Shown here piece by piece: positions 4,237-51,021 of a stretch of DNA of 64,000 nucleotides. Each line of letters opens with the position of its first letter. The first letter of the stretch is position 1. Under the pieces are notes generated by a model that saw only the letters and a list, made by a program, of their open reading frames with translations, searched no databases and was not told the DNA's origin. Source of the stretch: Escherichia phage PHB12. Position numbers and translations under genes: made by a program. The DNA lies in the sequence record MK524178.1. One strand, written 5' to 3'.

Positions 4237-4761
4237 TCATTTTAGCAAAATAAAATCAACTTGTTCTGCCAATGAACGTCTAAACATTAATTGACAACTT
4301 CCGAGGATGAAATCAGGTGCTTCATAGACCGCGATGTAGTATCCTTTAGCTTTCAAGAGTTCAACATCCACCTGGTCATCAAACCATGCATAAACCGCGT
4401 CAACACTTTCAAATCCAAAATAGAACCCTTGGGCCCAATCTTCACTCAATTCAAATGTGTGCTCAATTCTATAGTATCTTAAGATATTTTGTTCAAGGAG
4501 TTTGTCTTCATTTACTGTAGGACGATTAGGGACATTATAGTTGTCACCGTGATGGTAGAAGTTACCTGAGATTATTCCATGTTTATCAAGGAACTCCCAT
4601 GTTTCTTCAGAGTTGTCGGTGCCCGACCAACCGTATGGTGAACGAGGTTCTTTATTCCAAGAGGTTTCCCAAATTCTGACGGCTTTACCGTCTTCGATAG
4701 CAATTCCTGGTAATGATTCACGTTGAGTACAAAAACTACGTTCTACACGATAAACTAACAT
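4237..4761 (-). CDS. hypothetical protein (start moved to internal ATG after GAGGAG)
   Basis: Track ORF 4237..4818 begins upstream of the promoter; MLVYRVERSF at 4761 has RBS GAGGAG. Confidence 0.45.
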   Translation of the reverse strand: MLVYRVERSFCTQRESLPGIAIEDGKAVRIWETSWNKEPRSPYGWSGTDNSEETWEFLDKHGIISGNFYHHGDNYNVPNRPTVNEDKLLEQNILRYYRIEHTFELSEDWAQGFYFGFESVDAVYAWFDDQVDVELLKAKGYYIAVYEAPDFILGSCQLMFRRSLAEQVDFILLK

Positions 4762-4787
4762 ATTATTCTCCTCTGGTTGATATGGGT

Positions 4788-4816
4788 ATAATATCAAAAC
4801 CAGAGGAGAAGTAAAC
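4788..4816 (-). promoter_or_regulatory. early promoter (-35 GTTTAC, 17-bp spacer, -10 TATTAT) nested in 11-bp inverted repeat
   Basis: Minus strand GTTTAC-ttctcctctggttttga-TATTAT; arms 4768-4778 and 4798-4808, downstream arm carries the RBS GAGGAG. Confidence 0.55.
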
Positions 4817-4820
4817 AACT

Positions 4821-5240
4821 TTATGCGAAAGCAGCTGGGGTATATTTTTTAATTTGGAATTCAGGAACTACCATGAACTGACCAGCGAAAACGATGTTAT
4901 AAAGCTTAACACCATCTTCAACCCATTGGTCGCTGATAAATCCGGCGATTTGCTTAGTTTTCCACGGTGTTCCATCAGTTGCCGCAGCAATAGTGAATTC
5001 ATGGTCTTTTTCAACAGAAACTGATCTGCATAGTCCCCATTTGAACGCTTTTTCTTCTGGTTCAATGAATTGGCTTGAGACGTAGCCAATATTACCATTA
5101 GCATCACGAACTTTAACTTGGTTACGACCAAAAACCGGATCACTCACAGAAAGAACTTCAACCAACTTCCCGGCAACTTTAGAGCGAGAAGCAACAGATA
5201 CATATACGTAATCACCTGTAGAGAGATTTACAATATTCAT
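4821..5240 (-). CDS. hypothetical protein, member 1 of tandem paralogue family
   Basis: C-terminal FISDQWVEDGVKLYNIVF shared with the next two genes; N-terminal SVASRSKVAGKLVEV shared with 5250..5705. Confidence 0.5.
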   Translation of the reverse strand: MNIVNLSTGDYVYVSVASRSKVAGKLVEVLSVSDPVFGRNQVKVRDANGNIGYVSSQFIEPEEKAFKWGLCRSVSVEKDHEFTIAAATDGTPWKTKQIAGFISDQWVEDGVKLYNIVFAGQFMVVPEFQIKKYTPAAFA

Positions 5241-5249
5241 AATAATTCC

Positions 5250-5705
5250 TTAAGCTTTACGAGGAGACACATAGCGAGTGATTTCAGATTCTTTAACAAC
5301 TCGGAAGTCACCTAAGAATACGATATTGTATAACTTTTCACCATCTTCAACCCATTGGTCACTAATGAAGCCACACATAGTATCAGTTTTGCTTGGATAA
5401 CCGTATTCATCGATGAAGTCAAATTCTTTATCAGTCTGGAATTCAACGCCTTTGCAAAGGGCCCATTTGAACTGTACATTAGGTTCAGTGGAAGCAAAAT
5501 GAGCGCTCACAGGAGTTTCCAAGAATTTAGGACTTACGTAAGCGTACTGAGTATCCTGACGTCCAAAACTAGGAATGATTCGAACTTTAACTTCTTTAAT
5601 ACGTCCCATGCCATTTGTGCGAAGTCCGATAACTTCAACCAGACGACCTGCGGCTTTAGACCGGGATGCAATTGATACACGCTTAATTTCACCAATAGTA
5701 ATCAT
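5250..5705 (-). CDS. hypothetical protein, member 2 of tandem paralogue family
   Basis: GFISDQWVEDGEKLYNIVF and SIASRSKAAGRLVEV motifs. Confidence 0.5.
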   Translation of the reverse strand: MITIGEIKRVSIASRSKAAGRLVEVIGLRTNGMGRIKEVKVRIIPSFGRQDTQYAYVSPKFLETPVSAHFASTEPNVQFKWALCKGVEFQTDKEFDFIDEYGYPSKTDTMCGFISDQWVEDGEKLYNIVFLGDFRVVKESEITRYVSPRKA

Positions 5706-5734
5706 AATTTCTCTCTCTTTGTTAAATTGAATTC

Positions 5735-5764
5735 ACTATACTCCATCCGTCCTTGGATGTACAA
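5735..5764 (-). promoter_or_regulatory. early promoter-like (TTGTAC / TATAGT)
   Basis: Minus strand TTGTACAtccaaggacggatggagTATAGT upstream of 5250..5705. Confidence 0.4.
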
Positions 5765-5766
5765 CA

Positions 5767-6261
5767 TTAATTAAGGATATTAACCACAGCACTACGTGGA
5801 ACTACACTAAAATCACTTGAGTGAACAACGTTCAGAAGTTCAACACCGTCTTCAATCCATTGGTCAGTTACCCATCCATTTACTGGACCAGCGAATGGGC
5901 GTCGAATTGAAACATATTTACACAATAAATCAGTAGGCTCAATAGGCTTAATCAGAGTACCGTACATACAAGCGATATCCATATCAATACAGATGTCTTT
6001 AACGGGTTCTACTTCTTCAATCAACAGTTCAAAGTCGGTGCTTGGGATGGCAGTAGTAGAAATTGTACCGTATGAATTTTTAATTTCTAAGAATAACCAA
6101 GGGCCTTCAGCTTGTTTAATGAAGTTAACAATAGTGAAACTATTACCTTGAGTGGCACCTAAAATTTCACAAAACTTTTCATAAGCTCGCACTGAAGCAC
6201 CGTACCAGTTGATTTGTTTTTCGTCTTTCAGGATGTAAGTAGCCGTAGTATTGATATTCAT
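5767..6261 (-). CDS. hypothetical protein, member 3 of tandem paralogue family
   Basis: C-terminal GWVTDQWIEDGVELLNVV motif; own early promoter upstream. Confidence 0.5.
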   Translation of the reverse strand: MNINTTATYILKDEKQINWYGASVRAYEKFCEILGATQGNSFTIVNFIKQAEGPWLFLEIKNSYGTISTTAIPSTDFELLIEEVEPVKDICIDMDIACMYGTLIKPIEPTDLLCKYVSIRRPFAGPVNGWVTDQWIEDGVELLNVVHSSDFSVVPRSAVVNILN

Positions 6262-6292
6262 AATGTTTTTCCTGTTTGGTTAAGATAGAAAG

Positions 6293-6322
6293 ATTATACT
6301 CCAACCATCCTTGGTTGTAAAC
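6293..6322 (-). promoter_or_regulatory. early promoter (GTTTAC / TATAAT)
   Basis: GTTTACAACCAAGGATGGTTGGAGTATAAT; near-identical copies at 46653-46682 and 47643-47671. Confidence 0.55.
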
Positions 6323-6327
6323 TGGTT

Positions 6328-44367: not shown

Positions 44368-44703
44368 TTAACCGCGGAGCTTATTGAGCTCTTCATAATA
44401 AATCCAGGATTCTAGCCCAGACGGCAAATCAGATTCAACATTCCACAGAAGCTCTTCGATGGCTTGTAGGCGATTATATTCTTCAACAGTAATAGTAACC
44501 ATTGTTTCAGGCTTTTTAACCATCATGTCATTCATCAGAATGTACAGGTCTTCACAAACAGCCGGGTCGTCCCATGTCCATATTTCAGCATCTCGAACCA
44601 ATGAAGTCGGAATCGAATTTAAAACTTCAAGCTTAGTAGGAGCGTCAGGGCCGAGAAGAGTTGCTACAAATTTATATGCTTTGGCGAAATCAATATCGTT
44701 CAT
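44368..44703 (-). CDS. hypothetical protein
   Basis: 111-aa ORF. Confidence 0.4.
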   Translation of the reverse strand: MNDIDFAKAYKFVATLLGPDAPTKLEVLNSIPTSLVRDAEIWTWDDPAVCEDLYILMNDMMVKKPETMVTITVEEYNRLQAIEELLWNVESDLPSGLESWIYYEELNKLRG

Positions 44704-44963
44704 TTAAAATATTCTCGCAGTTGGTCGAATCCACCAATATGACTTCCGTCAGGAGCAAACACTTGAGGCATAGTCAATCCGACTTGTGATTCACGTCCAA
44801 GCTTAACCAGAAGCTCAGCAATTTTCTCATCATCAAAAACACCCTTTTCTGGCATAACATTAATGAATTCGAATGGCTGTTTCTTAACAGTCAGCAATCG
44901 TTTCGCATTATCGCAATAAATGCATTTATGAATAGTAGAGTCGTACCCGTACACTTTAAACAT
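44700..44963 (-). CDS. nrdC: thioredoxin (glutaredoxin-like)
   Basis: MFKVYGYDSTIHKCIYCDNAKRLL...FAPDGSHIGGFDQLREYFK matches T4 NrdC. Confidence 0.85.
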   Translation of the reverse strand: MFKVYGYDSTIHKCIYCDNAKRLLTVKKQPFEFINVMPEKGVFDDEKIAELLVKLGRESQVGLTMPQVFAPDGSHIGGFDQLREYFK

Positions 44964-45369
44964 TATTTTTCCTTTCATCAATTAAATATGCAACGCCAAA
45001 TACAATACATGTAATAAAACCTGTGATACAGATAGAAACCAACAACACTGTACCAAAGAACCAAATCAAGTTATCTTTAGTAGTTTGTTTGATATCCATC
45101 TCACGAATTTCTATAGCTATCGTATCACCTTTATTCAGAAGCGTATAAAACGATGGCGATACACGCCTGTCAAAAACTCGACCTTGTTCATCTTTATAAA
45201 CTGCAATAAATTCCAATTTAGAATATTTTCCTGTAGATTGTCCTGAAATTAATTCCACTACCTCTACAGGAATTACTTTAGTTTCCATGTAAGTATTCTG
45301 GCTGTTCCAAATGAATGGAATGATGGCAAAAACTAAAGCTGCAATAAAACAACGAAGGCTATATCTCAT
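44956..45369 (-). CDS. membrane protein
   Basis: 137 aa with N- and C-terminal hydrophobic helices. Confidence 0.4.
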   Translation of the reverse strand: MRYSLRCFIAALVFAIIPFIWNSQNTYMETKVIPVEVVELISGQSTGKYSKLEFIAVYKDEQGRVFDRRVSPSFYTLLNKGDTIAIEIREMDIKQTTKDNLIWFFGTVLLVSICITGFITCIVFGVAYLIDERKNNV

Positions 45370-45674
45370 TATAATGTTCTCTCAAATTTGTGGAAGCATT
45401 TACGGCATTTCAATTTCAAGTTATCAGTGGTCCAGTTAACCAGTTGGACTTGGATAGTTCCACATTCCGGGCATGGATGTTTTGCTGCCGATTTGGCAGC
45501 ATTTTCACGTCGTTCAACCATTTTCATTATTTCGTTCCATGCCGGAGGAACGAACTCTTCTTCACCGTGGATTTTATCTCGCTGAACAAATTCAATCTTT
45601 GAACTATCGTCAATAAACTTAACCAAGCCATGATTAGTGCTCATATCAATATCCTCTAAAAGACGTAGTTTCAT
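45369..45674 (-). CDS. zinc-ribbon protein
   Basis: 101 aa; CPECG...CRKC. Confidence 0.4.
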   Translation of the reverse strand: MKLRLLEDIDMSTNHGLVKFIDDSSKIEFVQRDKIHGEEEFVPPAWNEIMKMVERRENAAKSAAKHPCPECGTIQVQLVNWTTDNLKLKCRKCFHKFERTL

Positions 45675-46624
45675 TATAAAACCTCAATAGCATTTCGTAA
45701 ACCATCAGCTTTTGCATTCAGAGCTTTTAATGATTTAGTTTGTTCTGCAATCTGGGCTTCGACTTCTTTCAGACGAGATTTGAGATATTCGCGTTCTTCT
45801 CTTAAATTATCAACTTTTTCTACTTTAGTCTCTTTAATAGGCTTAGGTTTATACTCGTTAGGGTTCTTCAACTTAATTTGAATGCGAGAACTGTATAACA
45901 TTGAACCATTATCTTCAGTTTCATCATACATTTCTACCACGTCCATAGTCTGTAACATCATACGAAGTTTATAAGACAGCGAACGAACGGTTTTGTTGCG
46001 CTTATTAATTTCTTCGGCTTTCATGGTACCGAGATTACGTGAGTAGTAATAAGGAACCTGGATATCAATTGATAACGATGCAGCGCCATTACCGGTTGGT
46101 TTGAATACTGCAGTAACCCAATCTTTAACATGAACTTTATTTGTACGACCATCACCGCCTGTGAATAATTTACGTGAATGTTTAAAAAGCATATTCACTT
46201 GGTTATTGAATTCACAAGCAAATTTATCAGCAAATTTAGTTTCAGGAATGGTAGATAACCAATCAGCCAAATGAGTCTTTTTAACATCGTTAATAATAGT
46301 AAATTCAACCAAATCAGTTTTAGATGTCACAGATTTAATAAAGCTCGGCTTCATAAAGTTTTTAATGTTATCTCGAGCTACAGTAGAAGATAATAAACGA
46401 GAACGTTTGAACCATTGAAGCAGTGTCCCTAATGAATGAGAATACGCATTCTGAGTATCTTTACAGATATGATTTTCTTGGCCTGTGTATGTACCAAAAT
46501 CGCGAAGAATGCCACTTACTACAACTCGGTGTGGAACATCAAATCCTAATAAACCAGAAGCACGTTGGGCATGAACGTTAGCGATAAGACCTGCAAAATA
46601 ATCAACATAATGTGAACGTGTCAT
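45674..46624 (-). CDS. hypothetical protein with C-terminal coiled coil
   Basis: 316 aa; identical early promoter copy upstream. Confidence 0.5.
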   Translation of the reverse strand: MTRSHYVDYFAGLIANVHAQRASGLLGFDVPHRVVVSGILRDFGTYTGQENHICKDTQNAYSHSLGTLLQWFKRSRLLSSTVARDNIKNFMKPSFIKSVTSKTDLVEFTIINDVKKTHLADWLSTIPETKFADKFACEFNNQVNMLFKHSRKLFTGGDGRTNKVHVKDWVTAVFKPTGNGAASLSIDIQVPYYYSRNLGTMKAEEINKRNKTVRSLSYKLRMMLQTMDVVEMYDETEDNGSMLYSSRIQIKLKNPNEYKPKPIKETKVEKVDNLREEREYLKSRLKEVEAQIAEQTKSLKALNAKADGLRNAIEVL

Positions 46625-46652
46625 AATATTTTCCTCTCGTTAAGATAGAAAG

Positions 46653-46682
46653 ATTATACTCCAACCATCCTTGGTTGTAAAC
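46653..46682 (-). promoter_or_regulatory. early promoter (copy of the 6293 element)
   Basis: Same ~45-bp sequence gttaagatagaaagattatactccaaccatccttggttgtaaactg. Confidence 0.55.
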
Positions 46683-46686
46683 TGAT

Positions 46687-47616
46687 TTATGATTTTAATG
46701 CATTCATTGCATTAAAAAGTTTAGAGTATTGCAACTGGAGTTTGGTAACTACTTGTTGAGCATCACGAAGCTTAGCTTGTGCTTTGTCAAGTTCAACAGA
46801 CAGTTGGTCCACAGTGGCTTTGATTTGATTATAATAGTAATCTTCGGCAGGAAGAAGACCGTTAGAGATTTCCAGTTTAGTCGACGGTGTGCCGTTAAAC
46901 ATAACAGGTTGTGCTGAAGCTGCATTAATCTTACCGATAGTCGGGGCGACAATAATTGACGCTTCGAACGTTGCATTTTCCTTTTTAAGATTTTGATAGT
47001 ATTCAGAGTCTTTGTGCCACCATGGCGCAGGAACCTTTTTACCAATAGATACACGAGCCTGGATAGCGATATGGCCCTTATTCTTGATAACGTCGATAAT
47101 ATTAAGCTCACGAGAATAAATTGCTTTAATCTGGTGGATATTATCACCTAACACTTCCAACGCTTGGTGGAATACACGAGCAACGTTATCATTCTTAGGT
47201 TTATACGTAAGAGTGAACTCGTTCTCACTGATAACCATGATTTCTAACTTATCGTAAGTATATTTCAAATGTTTCATGTTAATTGCTTGAGGACGAATAC
47301 GAGAAGCAATGGCCATCAGATTGTTAAGGTTATTCCGGAACTGCTTAGCGAAATATTGTCCTTCACCGCCAATACAAAAATTACGAAGTTTCTGTTTGGC
47401 TAATAAACGGCTGAACTCACCATTTTTAATGAACTCTTTAACGGGTGTGTTAGTAACGCATTCAAATTGAGTAAACTTACGAGAAGTAATCCCATAATAT
47501 GAACAGATTTCCTCAATCTCTTCAGGAGTCTTTACAGGCATACGGATAGGATTAGGACCTGGGGTATATGCGTTAGAGGTAAATTCTTTGATAAGTTCTC
47601 TACGTGTAATAGCCAT
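46687..47616 (-). CDS. hypothetical protein with C-terminal coiled coil
   Basis: 309 aa; near-identical promoter copy upstream. Confidence 0.5.
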   Translation of the reverse strand: MAITRRELIKEFTSNAYTPGPNPIRMPVKTPEEIEEICSYYGITSRKFTQFECVTNTPVKEFIKNGEFSRLLAKQKLRNFCIGGEGQYFAKQFRNNLNNLMAIASRIRPQAINMKHLKYTYDKLEIMVISENEFTLTYKPKNDNVARVFHQALEVLGDNIHQIKAIYSRELNIIDVIKNKGHIAIQARVSIGKKVPAPWWHKDSEYYQNLKKENATFEASIIVAPTIGKINAASAQPVMFNGTPSTKLEISNGLLPAEDYYYNQIKATVDQLSVELDKAQAKLRDAQQVVTKLQLQYSKLFNAMNALKS

Positions 47617-47642
47617 TTTATATTCCTCATGTTGAAAAATTT

Positions 47643-47671
47643 ATTATACTCCAACCATCCTTGGTTGTACA
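47643..47671 (-). promoter_or_regulatory. early promoter (variant copy, -35 TGTACA)
   Basis: ttattatactccaaccatccttggttgtacatc upstream of 46687..47616. Confidence 0.45.
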
Positions 47672-48667
47672 TCATTCCTTAAGAAGTTTTACTACTTGAA
47701 TAAGATTAGCTCGTTCTGTTTTATTTTTACTGTTTAAGCCTGCTAATCGTGAGATTTCATCATCAGTCTGTTGAATAGTTACATTAAGTTCGCTAATCAA
47801 AGCTTCAAAGTATTTGATTTGCTCAGCATGTTTTGATTCAAATTTCTGAACCGGAATAACGTCCTGGTTTAGTTCATCAATAAGGTCTTTAAGAGCATCT
47901 TCTTGATTGATATCATATTCAACTTCTTTTATTTCTTCAACGAGCTCGTCTTTATATCTAACGTCTTTTAGTCCTGGTGATGGTCCTGAAATCTCTTCTT
48001 TAAGAGTACAAACATATCCAATACGGTATCCAATGCCGTCTCGCTTGATATCAACTTCGTCAATAAATCCACAATGTTTAAGACCAGAGCCGATTAGGTC
48101 AAAATATCCTTGACGTCGTCCTTCAAACGTTACACGAACTACTAAGACAGTTTTACCTGCAACCTTTTGAAGCTCACATTTATAAAAGTCTGTTGAACCT
48201 GAATAACGTGGATGAGTTTTAAAGTTCATCTGACGATCTAGGCCCATTTGTAAGCGTGCTGATACGGCCATAAAACGTGTTTGGTTCTCGTTAAGATGAG
48301 CAACAATCCATTTCAAAGGCATTTTACACTGTTCACGACCGAACAAATCAGTACGTCCTAGATTACGCAGGATGTTGTTAGAGTTAATCATCGACAGAAC
48401 GTTAAGTTTATTCAGCGCGCTGAAGATTCCATCGGCCATTGATTTTCCGTAACCTTTACACGCTTTAATAAGCGCTCGCGGTAGATTAGTATAAATTTCA
48501 GACGGCATATGAAAATCAAATTTACTAGTCAGTAATTGATGAACTTGGATAGCAATTTGCTCATAATTAAGTGCTCTGCGATCATTATGGTCTTTAAACC
48601 ACACTTTAATCTGTGAAGCACATAAACCGTTAATTTCATGTTTTACCGCATCAGATGTAATGCTCAT
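47672..48667 (-). CDS. hypothetical protein with C-terminal coiled coil
   Basis: 331-aa ORF. Confidence 0.5.
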   Translation of the reverse strand: MSITSDAVKHEINGLCASQIKVWFKDHNDRRALNYEQIAIQVHQLLTSKFDFHMPSEIYTNLPRALIKACKGYGKSMADGIFSALNKLNVLSMINSNNILRNLGRTDLFGREQCKMPLKWIVAHLNENQTRFMAVSARLQMGLDRQMNFKTHPRYSGSTDFYKCELQKVAGKTVLVVRVTFEGRRQGYFDLIGSGLKHCGFIDEVDIKRDGIGYRIGYVCTLKEEISGPSPGLKDVRYKDELVEEIKEVEYDINQEDALKDLIDELNQDVIPVQKFESKHAEQIKYFEALISELNVTIQQTDDEISRLAGLNSKNKTERANLIQVVKLLKE

Positions 48668-48729
48668 AACTATTTCCTCAGATTGAATTGGAACTCAAAA
48701 CCATTATAACCCGTCCTTGGGTAAAGCGT

Positions 48730-49257
48730 TTATGCGTGAACCGTCTTTAAACGTTCTTCAAATTTCCGAAGAGTACTAATACGTTCTGCTTTCTGTTTTG
48801 TATAGTTTGCAATACGTTCTGAAGTGAGAGCGTATCGTTCGTTTACTGTTTCTTTCATGAAGTCAGGGATTTCACGAGAAGCTTTAATTTCATCAAACTT
48901 ATCGAGTACTGCCTGGTCTTCAGCGATTAAATTTTCGTACATCTCGATATCTTTCTTGATAAACTCGATATCTTCCTGGGTTACTTTGGATAAACGAGAT
49001 GCTTTATCCTTTTTGTACTGCTCGTTAGTTTCACGAGACCAGAATAATGTACGTTTTTTGTTAGTGTTTTTGTAGACTTCCACAATTCCAACTGAATCGA
49101 TGATAGCAATCCAATTCCAGTGAGATTTGAAAATCTGACCTCCGTCCACGGTAATCTCGTTACCATAAGCAACGTCATTAAAGAACTTGCTTTGTGCTTC
49201 AGATTTAAATTTACCGTCGTTATAATTTACCAGGTTGAAAATATCTTTAGCGTTCAT
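48730..49257 (-). CDS. hypothetical protein
   Basis: 175 aa; RBS GGAGG; promoter upstream. Confidence 0.45.
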   Translation of the reverse strand: MNAKDIFNLVNYNDGKFKSEAQSKFFNDVAYGNEITVDGGQIFKSHWNWIAIIDSVGIVEVYKNTNKKRTLFWSRETNEQYKKDKASRLSKVTQEDIEFIKKDIEMYENLIAEDQAVLDKFDEIKASREIPDFMKETVNERYALTSERIANYTKQKAERISTLRKFEERLKTVHA

Positions 49258-49284
49258 GTTTTACCTCCAGTAGTTGATAGGTCT

Positions 49285-49313
49285 ATAATAACATAACCAT
49301 AGACCTTGTAAAC
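49285..49313 (-). promoter_or_regulatory. early promoter (GTTTAC / TATTAT) with ATAGACC palindrome around -10
   Basis: GTTTACaaggtctatggttatgtTATTATagacctatc; inverted repeat AGGTCTAT / ATAGACCT at 49279-49306. Confidence 0.55.
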
Positions 49314-49315
49314 AA

Positions 49316-49657
49316 CTAAAAGAAACTTTTTTCGGTATTTTTTCCACTGAACCAAGCGGATTGGGTAGTATTTTTCCGTTGGTGTTCGATACGAATGCGA
49401 TATTCATTCCTGATGGCGCAGAGTTCACCTCGGAAGTCGCCTGCCAACTTTACCTGCTTTCGGTCTAGATTTATTAAGGCCTGAGTCTTCGCGGCCAAGA
49501 GCAGTCTCTTGTAGTCTCCTTCTTCACAATCGGTTTTATAAACTCTATTGGTATATCCGTTGATAACTTCTTTATCATAGTCCTCGACGGATTGTTTCAT
49601 AGCTTTGGAAAAAGTCTGACCTGCGTTATAAAGATTGTAAATAAATTGTTCAAACAT
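49316..49657 (-). CDS. hypothetical protein
   Basis: 113-aa ORF. Confidence 0.4.
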   Translation of the reverse strand: MFEQFIYNLYNAGQTFSKAMKQSVEDYDKEVINGYTNRVYKTDCEEGDYKRLLLAAKTQALINLDRKQVKLAGDFRGELCAIRNEYRIRIEHQRKNTTQSAWFSGKNTEKSFF

Positions 49658-49667
49658 AATTTCACCT

Positions 49668-50648
49668 TTATTTCAGAAGTGTAACTTCAGAGATTTCCTC
49701 CCAACCGTCTTTATCAGTTGAAATAAAATCTGCTACATAAAGAGCCGTACGTAATGATACATTGCGAAGACGAGATACGTTAGCCTTCATCCAGGACAAT
49801 GCTTTATACGTTTCTGCATCTGTCAGACCACGTTTCTGCATCATGTCAGTAGATAATATTACATCTTCAACTCGAACCATAATCTCTTCATTAGAGTGTA
49901 CTCCAAGGTCGAGATACACTGAACGAGATACTAAAGCTTGAAGGTGCGGGGCAAGCTTCGAACCGCGTTCTAACTCTTTATCGATATCAACGTTTGTAAT
50001 GAAAACGATAGTACCTTCAAACACAAATTCTTTATCAATACCCTTATCATCGAGATAAGACGACGCAGTGCTCCAGCAAACTTTGCGTTTATCTCCAGTA
50101 TCTAATGCTGCTTTAAGAAGGTTCAAGATGTCCATATCCGAGAATACGTCAACGTCGTCGATTAAGAGAACGCTGTCTGCATCACGGTTGAGCCAAAGTT
50201 GTTCGTAAAGGCCTATACCAGAGATTTTACCATTAATGCTTTTGTATTTGATGAAACCGTTATCATTAGCATTATTAAGCGCTTTATCCAGAGAATACGT
50301 CTTACCAATACCTGCTGCACCTGAAATAATGAGTGAACGAATTTTGCCATCGATAATGCCATTCGTCATCATGTTCATTACTTTAAAGCGTTTGTTGATA
50401 CGAGTTTTCATATCTTCACTGCTTTCAACAACTGCAACTGGTGATGTCTCAGCTCCTTCCATTACGATGTCTGATTTGAAGACCCATACTCCACGTTCAG
50501 AACCATCAATCATAACGAAAATTTTACCATCACCTAAGTGGGAACATTCAGGATTAAGCTTTGCCGGGAACCATGTCTTTGTGGCAACATAAGAACCAGA
50601 GATTTCGTTATTACGATAGATACCTTTTTTGATTTGAACGTTGAACAT
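49668..50648 (-). CDS. P-loop ATPase (AAA-like), unknown function
   Basis: Walker A ISGAAGIGKTY and Walker B VLLIDDVD; start at MFNVQIKKG after GGAGAA. Confidence 0.5.
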   Translation of the reverse strand: MFNVQIKKGIYRNNEISGSYVATKTWFPAKLNPECSHLGDGKIFVMIDGSERGVWVFKSDIVMEGAETSPVAVVESSEDMKTRINKRFKVMNMMTNGIIDGKIRSLIISGAAGIGKTYSLDKALNNANDNGFIKYKSINGKISGIGLYEQLWLNRDADSVLLIDDVDVFSDMDILNLLKAALDTGDKRKVCWSTASSYLDDKGIDKEFVFEGTIVFITNVDIDKELERGSKLAPHLQALVSRSVYLDLGVHSNEEIMVRVEDVILSTDMMQKRGLTDAETYKALSWMKANVSRLRNVSLRTALYVADFISTDKDGWEEISEVTLLK

Positions 50649-50686
50649 TTTATTCTCCAATTTACTCATTTCGTTTCGATAGGTCT

Positions 50687-50715
50687 ATAATAACATGTTT
50701 AAAGCAAAAGTAAAC
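50687..50715 (-). promoter_or_regulatory. early promoter (GTTTAC / TATTAT)
   Basis: GTTTACttttgctttaaacatgtTATTATagacctatc upstream of the P-loop ATPase gene. Confidence 0.55.
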
Positions 50716-50717
50716 AA

Positions 50718-50936
50718 TTATTTGCGACGAGATTTTTTGGTAAGAGGTTGAAAGAACACTGCTTTACCTGCAGGAGTCAAAGTAACTCGTAATGCATTAC
50801 CGATTCCCAAGGATGCTTTAACAAGACCTTTAGATTTCAGTTCACCGAATGCTTGACGTTGGTCTGCATCACGAGTGTTAACCATAAGACCTTTATCACC
50901 AGCTTCACGAATCATTTCTAACATTTTGGTTTTCAT
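50718..50936 (-). CDS. small hypothetical protein
   Basis: Start at MKTKMLEMIREAG after GAGGAG. Confidence 0.35.
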   Translation of the reverse strand: MKTKMLEMIREAGDKGLMVNTRDADQRQAFGELKSKGLVKASLGIGNALRVTLTPAGKAVFFQPLTKKSRRK

Positions 50937-50964
50937 TTTGTTCTCCTCTTGTTTTGATAGGTCT

Positions 50965-50993
50965 ATAATAACATATCCTAAAAGCATGTACAC
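50965..50993 (-). promoter_or_regulatory. early promoter-like (GTGTAC / TATTAT)
   Basis: GTGTACatgcttttaggatatgtTATTATagacctatc. Confidence 0.45.
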
Positions 50994-51021
50994 CACTTTT
51001 TAAAAATATTTTGACCCCCTA

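Follow-up and report, generated by a model that had tools for sequence, protein, structure and literature searches.

Homologues of NrdC.3, NrdC.5 and NrdC.6 in Escherichia phage PHB12: a candidate counter-defence array of probable paralogs with promoter/stem-loop cassettes

The window analysed here is a stretch of 64,000 nucleotides (nt) from Escherichia phage PHB12 (sequence record MK524178.1), in which three consecutive open reading frames (ORFs), designated genes A, B and C, had been singled out from the letters alone as putative host-takeover genes, each ending in a coiled coil and each lying behind a copy of the same strong early promoter. The three ORFs were recovered exactly as predicted, all on the minus strand (Table 1). 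They encode homologues of the T4 proteins NrdC.3, NrdC.5 and NrdC.6, and the reading that we favour, at somewhat better than even chances, is that they form an early, nonessential counter-defence array made up of diverged paralogs with their own cassettes of the promoter/stem-loop (PeSL) type. Their reading as accessory genes, nonessential and driven by early promoters, in a hyperplastic region is supported.

The source of the window is a T-even phage of the RB69/JS09-like kind, in the genus Mosigvirus; in megablast, the 4-kb region was 97-98% identical to Mosigvirus genomes such as those of JS09 and phi25-307, which are relatives of RB69. The JS09 record, by reference to RB69, gives the transcription order nrdC.8, nrdC.6, nrdC.5, nrdC.3, nrdC.2, nrdC.7 and nrdC, and all genes in the region were on the minus strand. 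By sequence, genes A, B and C are the catalogued homologues of NrdC.3, NrdC.5 and NrdC.6, with C, B, A as the predicted order of transcription. They sit inside a variable array bounded by the conserved genes nrdC.8 and nrdC.2, possess ribosome-binding sites of the GAGG type, and have conserved counterparts in over 130 Mosigvirus records, with ratios of nonsynonymous to synonymous substitution (dN/dS) of 0.08-0.41 between Mosigvirus genomes, indicating purifying selection. Foreign origin was not indicated by composition, the G+C content being 0.34-0.40 over 42-52 kb. Matches to virion or replication proteins, sought as evidence against the original prediction, were not found for the products of genes A, B and C, and PADLOC gave no meaningful match.

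The predicted product of gene A shared 56% identity with T4 NrdC.3 (BLASTP, E 4e-120), matched phrog_1435 (PHROGs, E 9e-104) and is annotated as nrdC.3 in RB69/JS09; its dN/dS among Mosigvirus was 0.11-0.15, and a phmmer search against 1.84 billion cluster representatives returned 4 matches only. The gene B product belonged to Pfam DUF7235 (PF23882), with E 6e-112 and 374.5 bits (cut-off 30) over residues 14-308 on model positions 1-307; T4 NrdC.5 matched the same family over its full length (E 5e-126, 420.6 bits). Identity between the two proteins was 24% (BLASTP against a small database, E 5e-10). Within Mosigvirus, gene B varied more than A or C; it carried indels and had a dN/dS of 0.2-0.4, and the slot that it occupies, between nrdC.6 and nrdC.4/nrdC.3, was found alike in Mosigvirus, Tequatrovirus and Dhakavirus-like loci. 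A single-sequence, word-indexed search with gene B returned only homologues of at least 79% identity, and a profile search with gene B did not return any T4-type NrdC.5, though two of these sat in the query alignment.

The gene C product shared 29% identity with T4 NrdC.6 (BLASTP, E 2e-18) and matched phrog_2257 (PHROGs, E 3e-127); PF26899 was carried by 107 of its 107 homologues. Structure prediction, proposed earlier as a check, was run for genes B and C, and the AlphaFold2 model of gene C had a mean predicted local distance difference test (pLDDT) score of 70.5, with an N-terminal helical domain at 80-92. Between its alpha/beta core and its C-terminal helices, gene C carries an acidic insertion of about 35 residues with a net charge of about -9, which is Mosigvirus-specific and was modelled mostly with low confidence. 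The T4 reference nrdC.6 (NC_000866, 11997-12894; 275 residues) appears to contain a frameshift near its 3' end; the conserved C-terminal helix EIFRLSGLSSKAKSEREKLIKIVDLLKS of relatives (295 residues) is still encoded in T4 in another frame, and this out-of-frame coding extends up to the nrdC.5 ribosome-binding site.

T4 can do without the array region. Deletions in the accessory region leave a T4 clone unable to plate on ECOR17 or on MG1655 carrying ECOR17 dsr1, whose product is a SIR2-domain defence protein; T4 nrdC.5, which is classed as early, enables the deletion mutant to plate again on cells with Dsr1 (Srikant et al. 2022, PMC9391042). T6 gp49.2, a neighbour lying a few kb away, inhibits the OLD defence (PMC13096335). 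The NrdC.3, NrdC.5 and NrdC.6 families were found to be narrow, fast-evolving and confined to few closely related genera. Taken together, the anti-Dsr1 activity of T4 NrdC.5, the presence of gp49.2 nearby and the narrowness of the families make a counter-defence array the best-supported reading, which would extend to gene B through its Pfam family and to genes A and C through paralogy and context. The literature on DUF7235 and on anti-Dsr1 activity yielded nothing functional beyond PMC9391042.

The host-takeover role originally proposed fared less well, since the sole experimental evidence for the family, that of T4 NrdC.5 versus Dsr1, points to counter-defence. Generic takeover effectors would act on a housekeeping process of the host (transcription, the nucleoid or a protease, for example), inhibiting or redirecting it, and expressed by themselves they would be toxic. 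This is unlikely but agrees with the early-type promoters, with the predicted use of the same cassette by MotB-like 'modifier of transcription' paralogs (4237-6261) and with the proximity of Pin, a Lon inhibitor, and no domain match excludes it. However, the only family member tested targets a defence gene present in some hosts only, and the families are limited to few close genera and vary in copy number, a distribution that strain-specific targets fit better than a conserved housekeeping target.

Array content was compared across the nrdC.8-nrdC.2 interval in 12 IMG/VR contigs, T4 and JS09. The arrangement was NrdC.7-.6-.5-.4-.3 in Tequatrovirus,.6-.5-.3 in Mosigvirus, and.6, a 71-residue ORF,.5 and.4 in Dhakavirus-like loci. 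Pairwise BLASTP among the products of genes A, B and C found nothing, and PHROGs assigned them to three separate families. When family alignments were compared locally with hhalign, NrdC.3 matched NrdC.4 with a probability of 98% and NrdC.4 matched NrdC.5 with one of 70-75%; NrdC.6 matched none of NrdC.3, NrdC.4 and NrdC.5, the direct comparison of the NrdC.5 and NrdC.6 profiles giving nothing.

A link to gene C was provided by distant T4-like phages. Foldseek searches of BFVD with the gene C model retrieved full-length, uncharacterised proteins of about 300-335 residues from distant T4-likes, including several Acinetobacter phages; among them were a 309-residue protein of PM2 (E 3e-7) and a 335-residue protein of IME523 (E 3e-6), phages of Pectobacterium and Enterobacter, respectively. 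The family formed by PM2_092 and Kanagawavirus proteins, named F7 here, is single-copy and lies directly upstream of nrdC.2 in PM2 and 4 Kanagawavirus genomes, the position held by NrdC.3/NrdC.4 in T-evens; a related-locus search with PM2_092 returned only itself. The F7 profile matched NrdC.5 (96.4%, E 1e-9, 217 columns), NrdC.6 (96.1%, E 3e-9, 170 columns) and NrdC.3 and NrdC.4 combined (86.8%), while unrelated neighbouring proteins, used as a control, stayed below 1.3%.

As a control for coiled-coil bias, the last 60 residues were cut from every sequence. NrdC.3 and NrdC.4 still matched at 97.7%, NrdC.4 and NrdC.5 at 86.2%, and NrdC.6 and F7 at 90.4%; thus, genes A and B are joined via their globular parts, and gene C is joined to F7. 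The two groups, NrdC.3/.4/.5 and NrdC.6/F7, are bridged mainly by a clearly similar C-terminal helix module, with further bridges in short motifs that run collinearly, an invariant proline at the opening of the helix, equal size and genomic position; the joint alignment displayed the collinear motifs, the invariant proline and two near-invariant C-terminal leucines. Common ancestry is very probable for genes A and B and probable for A, B and C together. The presence of F7 and the profile links among NrdC.3, NrdC.4, NrdC.5 and NrdC.6 suggest that the array most likely consists of diverged tandem paralogs, with one copy in distant T4-likes, three here and four in T4. Modular gain, as claimed earlier, is retained in so far as the cassettes are of the PeSL kind and gene content differs by genus; three independent gains are not supported, the genes being catalogued NrdC.3/.5/.6 homologues and probably diverged paralogs.

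Coiled-coil C-termini had been claimed for all three products. Heptad scores were compared with those of 200 composition-matched shuffles per protein and were beaten by 0 of 200 for gene A, 0 of 200 for gene B and 3 of 200 for gene C. In the AlphaFold2 model of gene B, the best-scoring segment was one helix of 52 residues (257-308) with a block-mean pLDDT of about 50-80; in that of gene C, helices 277-307 and 313-330 were separated by a break at G-L-N (residues 308-312). A coiled coil is therefore well predicted for A and B, whereas the C-terminus of gene C, with its broken helix, is marginal and may instead form a helical hairpin. The gene A helix aligned with its C-terminal counterparts in the other families, which end in L..A...L(K). 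Weak matches to Smc, CHMP1B and the CENP-F leucine zipper agree with a coiled-coil-like composition, and searching PDB sequences with profiles of NrdC.5 and NrdC.6 yielded nothing but weak coiled-coil matches. The C-terminal helix is among the best-conserved segments of each family, which suggests a role beyond passive oligomerisation.

The window contained exactly three occurrences of the 26-mer TTATACTCCAACCATCCTTGGTTGTA (at 6294, 46654 and 47644), with none expected. Cassette A, preceding gene A, matched the sigma-70 consensus at 11 of 12 positions with a 17-nt spacer, contained the hairpin CAACC-AAGGAT-GGTTG at 46662-46677, and had a predicted transcription start near 46646; it is identical across 46 nt (46639-46684) to 6279-6324. 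Cassette B matched at 10 of 12 positions, also with a 17-nt spacer, and its -35, which abuts the gene C stop codon, is weaker than that of cassette A. It shares 27 nt (47643-47669) with cassette A as an exact direct repeat (family D2), 990 bp apart, that brackets gene B. Cassettes A and B each lie between the preceding stop codon and the ribosome-binding site that follows. Cassette C consists of the MotA-box-like AAACGCTTTA, which reaches into the stop codon of nrdC.8, then 13 nt, then TATAAT; a -35 hexamer is absent, and the sigma-70 scan did not pick the element up. The MotA box has the consensus (a/t)(a/t)(a/t)TGCTT(t/c)A, located 11-13 nt upstream of a TAnnnT -10, and in cassette C a C replaces the first T of the core. 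The hairpin design (here ACCC-AAGGAC-GGGT) and the -10 are all that it shares with the early block; the counterpart after nrdC.8 in T4 and Dhakavirus-like loci reads CGCTTTA-TACC-AAGGAT-GGTA-TAAT. Thus, copies of the block at 6283, originally predicted for all three genes, precede A and B, and gene C has instead a predicted middle promoter of the MotA type. Strong immediate-early expression, also claimed, would be expected from the consensus matches only.

Cassettes A, B and C all appear to be PeSL-type promoter/stem-loop elements, with predicted promoter activity and with the hairpin, a stem around an AAGGAY loop, lying inside the promoter spacer. Five AAGGAY-loop hairpins, all on the coding strand, were found in the window versus 0.35 expected. 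Since the loop is constant and at least six different stems in three genera keep complementarity, the palindrome is under selection. A role of the hairpin as terminator or attenuator, the terminator half of a PeSL, was unsupported by prediction, with folding of ordinary stability and the U-tract absent. Rfam gave no match in 44500-50000. Several of the variable genes are preceded by cassettes and the gene content of the array differs between genera; among the Mosigvirus records examined, none clearly lacked gene B. Downstream of the -10 (46639-46652), the nrdC.3 cassette reads CTTTCTATCTTAAC, as the motB.1 cassette does, and other Mosigviruses have GAATCTATCTTAAC at the same nrdC.3 site; this 4-nt patch looks like gene conversion between cassettes about 40 kb apart.

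A mechanism can be proposed from these features. Two of the cassettes would be copies of one sigma-70 early promoter and the third a MotA-type middle promoter; each gene having its own cassette, transcription of the array should start in the first minutes of infection and give nested transcripts running on into nrdC.2, nrdC.7 and nrdC. Short stretches of identity between the cassettes would serve as recombination sites at which genes are added, removed or converted. The products would share one design of about 300-340 residues, comprising a variable N-terminal helical region, a small alpha/beta core, two core motifs, the invariant proline and a conserved amphipathic C-terminal helix. They would neutralise host anti-phage defence proteins through direct binding, the variable N-terminal part setting target specificity and the C-terminal helix driving oligomerisation of the inhibitor.

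Several observations weigh against the favoured reading of the array. Activity against Dsr1 is a phenotype seen in one complementation experiment, which concerns T4 NrdC.5 only, and the literature held no functional study of NrdC.3, NrdC.4 or NrdC.6. A tblastn search with T4 NrdC.5 failed to reach Mosigvirus, which, with the 24% identity, means that the anti-Dsr1 activity may not be conserved in gene B. The AlphaFold2 model of gene B was poor overall (pLDDT 46.8), too poor for a fold search. No terminator-like site was predicted on the minus strand from 45000 to 51000, and the hairpins are weak (folding z -0.6 to -0.7, no U-tract). Without the C-terminal 60 residues, NrdC.5 matched F7 at 6.3% and NrdC.4 matched F7 at 14%, so that whole-gene paralogy of C with A and B is probable, not proven; a C-terminal module shared through recombination would also fit.

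The weakening of the NrdC.6 link on removal of the C-terminus also bears on the idea that the genes are unrelated orphans gathered by cassette shuffling, with a common length and a C-terminal helix that are convergent or a shuffled module. The lack of pairwise BLASTP similarity and of a direct match between the NrdC.5 and NrdC.6 profiles is in keeping with this, as is the proposal that PeSLs shuffle orphan genes. However, the globular parts link NrdC.3, NrdC.4 and NrdC.5, F7 matches both NrdC.5 and NrdC.6 with E about 1e-9, the motifs are collinear, the structure modelled for gene C matches F7 proteins, and F7 occupies the same genomic slot, which together make this alternative rather improbable. 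A single hetero-oligomeric complex of paralogs joined via C-terminal helices for one function, to which the constant adjacency of the genes and the helix as best-conserved segment within and between families would be suited, is about equally improbable, given that copy number and membership vary by genus (1, 3, 3, 4), that T4 NrdC.5 alone complemented the Dsr1 phenotype and that the C-terminal helix of the T4 reference NrdC.6 is lost to a frameshift.

The reading of the array as counter-defence paralogs can be taken further, tentatively, to a modular toolkit, in which one ancestral scaffold, single-copy in PM2 and Kanagawavirus, was duplicated three to four times in T-even coliphages, its N-termini retargeted and its C-terminal helix kept in common, with recombination at the cassettes. 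T4 NrdC.5 would then act on Dsr1 and each of the other paralogs on a different host immune protein, and the shared helix would oligomerise the inhibitor or dock it on a common partner. If both paralogy and counter-defence hold, T4 NrdC.5/Dsr1 would open the way to a family with at least five related lineages in hundreds of coliphages of the therapeutic type; every lineage would be a candidate for inhibiting a different defence system, with the divergent NrdC.5 of Mosigvirus as a naturally occurring variant in specificity. The family would also supply a short gene list for defence panels, with the C-terminal helix as a conserved module for probing mechanism. Earlier literature covers both the genes and this type of cassette; new here are the probable unification of NrdC.3, NrdC.4, NrdC.5 and NrdC.6 with a single-copy family of distant T4-like phages, and an AAGGAY hairpin that is conserved. 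As to the cassettes, the result is confirmatory and extends the PeSL concept to Mosigvirus, with a conserved AAGGAY-loop hairpin in the promoter spacer.

Table 1. Features of the NrdC array and of the motB locus in the window (positions in the 64,000-nt stretch; aa, amino acids)
Feature	Position	Strand	Remarks
Gene A, NrdC.3 ortholog	45674..46624	minus	316 aa; stop overlaps nrdC.2 start
Gene B, divergent NrdC.5 homologue, Pfam DUF7235	46687..47616	minus	309 aa
Gene C, NrdC.6 family	47672..48667	minus	331 aa; lineage-specific acidic insertion
Gene A heptad helix	45677..45829	minus	aa ~266-316; heptad score
Gene B long helix	46693..46848	minus	aa 257-308; AlphaFold2 and heptad score
Gene C helices	47678..47839	minus	aa 277-307 and 313-330; most conserved part of the family
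Gene C acidic insertion	47864-47971		aa ~233-268
Cassette A, PeSL type	46639..46684	minus	-35 TTTACA 46676-46681; -10 TATAAT 46653-46658
Cassette B	47643..47671	minus	-35 TGTACA 47666-47671; hairpin 47652-47667; -10 TATAAT 47643-47648
Cassette C	48703..48731	minus	AAACGCTTTA 48722-48731; hairpin 48709-48722; -10 TATAAT 48703-48708
Third early cassette copy	6279..6324	minus	precedes motB.1
Related hairpin	5744..5759	minus	compensatory stem CATCC-AAGGAC-GGATG; precedes motB
motB.1	5767-6261	minus	name from JS09 record
motB	5250-5705	minus	name from JS09 record
MotB-like gene	4821-5240	minus	tandem MotB-like array
motB.2	4237-4818	minus	name from JS09 record
NrdC.2 homologue	45369-45674	minus	101 aa
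NrdC.10 homologue	49668-50669	minus	333 aa

The overlap of the nrdC.2 start with the gene A stop suggests translational coupling of nrdC.2 to the array; the NrdC.2 homologue has a CPEC...CRKC motif and is zinc-ribbon-like. The NrdC.10 homologue possesses the Walker A motif GAAGIGKT, and its Pfam matches to AAA/STAND NTPases were weak, all under the gathering scores. Many phage records in GenBank call homologues of NrdC.3, NrdC.5, NrdC.6 and NrdC.8 'thioredoxin'; the Pfam and PHROG matches of the NrdC homologues in the window contained no link to thioredoxin, and the label appears to be a mistaken annotation carried over from the name of the neighbouring nrdC gene. A second tandem array of paralogs, the motB array, was observed at 4237-6324 on the minus strand, downstream of dda and dexA, and at least its first three genes carry a C-terminal DQWVEDG...VV motif.

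The closest known counterpart, T4 NrdC.5, resembles gene B in Pfam family over the full length, in array position, in its similar size and in the C-terminal helix motif, but differs in that the N-terminal region of gene B is shorter, the linker is different and identity is low. The NrdC.3 and NrdC.6 proteins of T4 and RB69 are the namesakes of genes A and C, whereas NrdC.6 of Tequatrovirus and Dhakavirus lacks the acidic insertion of gene C. Compared with T4, Mosigvirus lacks NrdC.4 and has nrdC.7 placed elsewhere. Functional analogy only is offered by TifA, Dmd, AdfA, IPIII and T6 Gp49.2, nonessential early genes of small to medium size that act against strain-limited defences. The cassettes resemble the PeSL cassettes of T4-like phages (Arbiol et al. 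2010, PMC2839356; Comeau et al. 2014, PMC4122927), which have been proposed as mediators of modular gain and loss and whose published subclasses include a stem-loop between -35 and -10 and MotA-type variants termed PmSL. The likeness lies in an intergenic sigma-70-like early promoter with an embedded stem-loop, repeated in hyperplastic regions and flanking variable accessory genes. They differ in that the stems here are 4-6 bp around the AAGGAY loop with no U-tract and no predicted terminator, and that recombination is suggested here by the conversion patch only.

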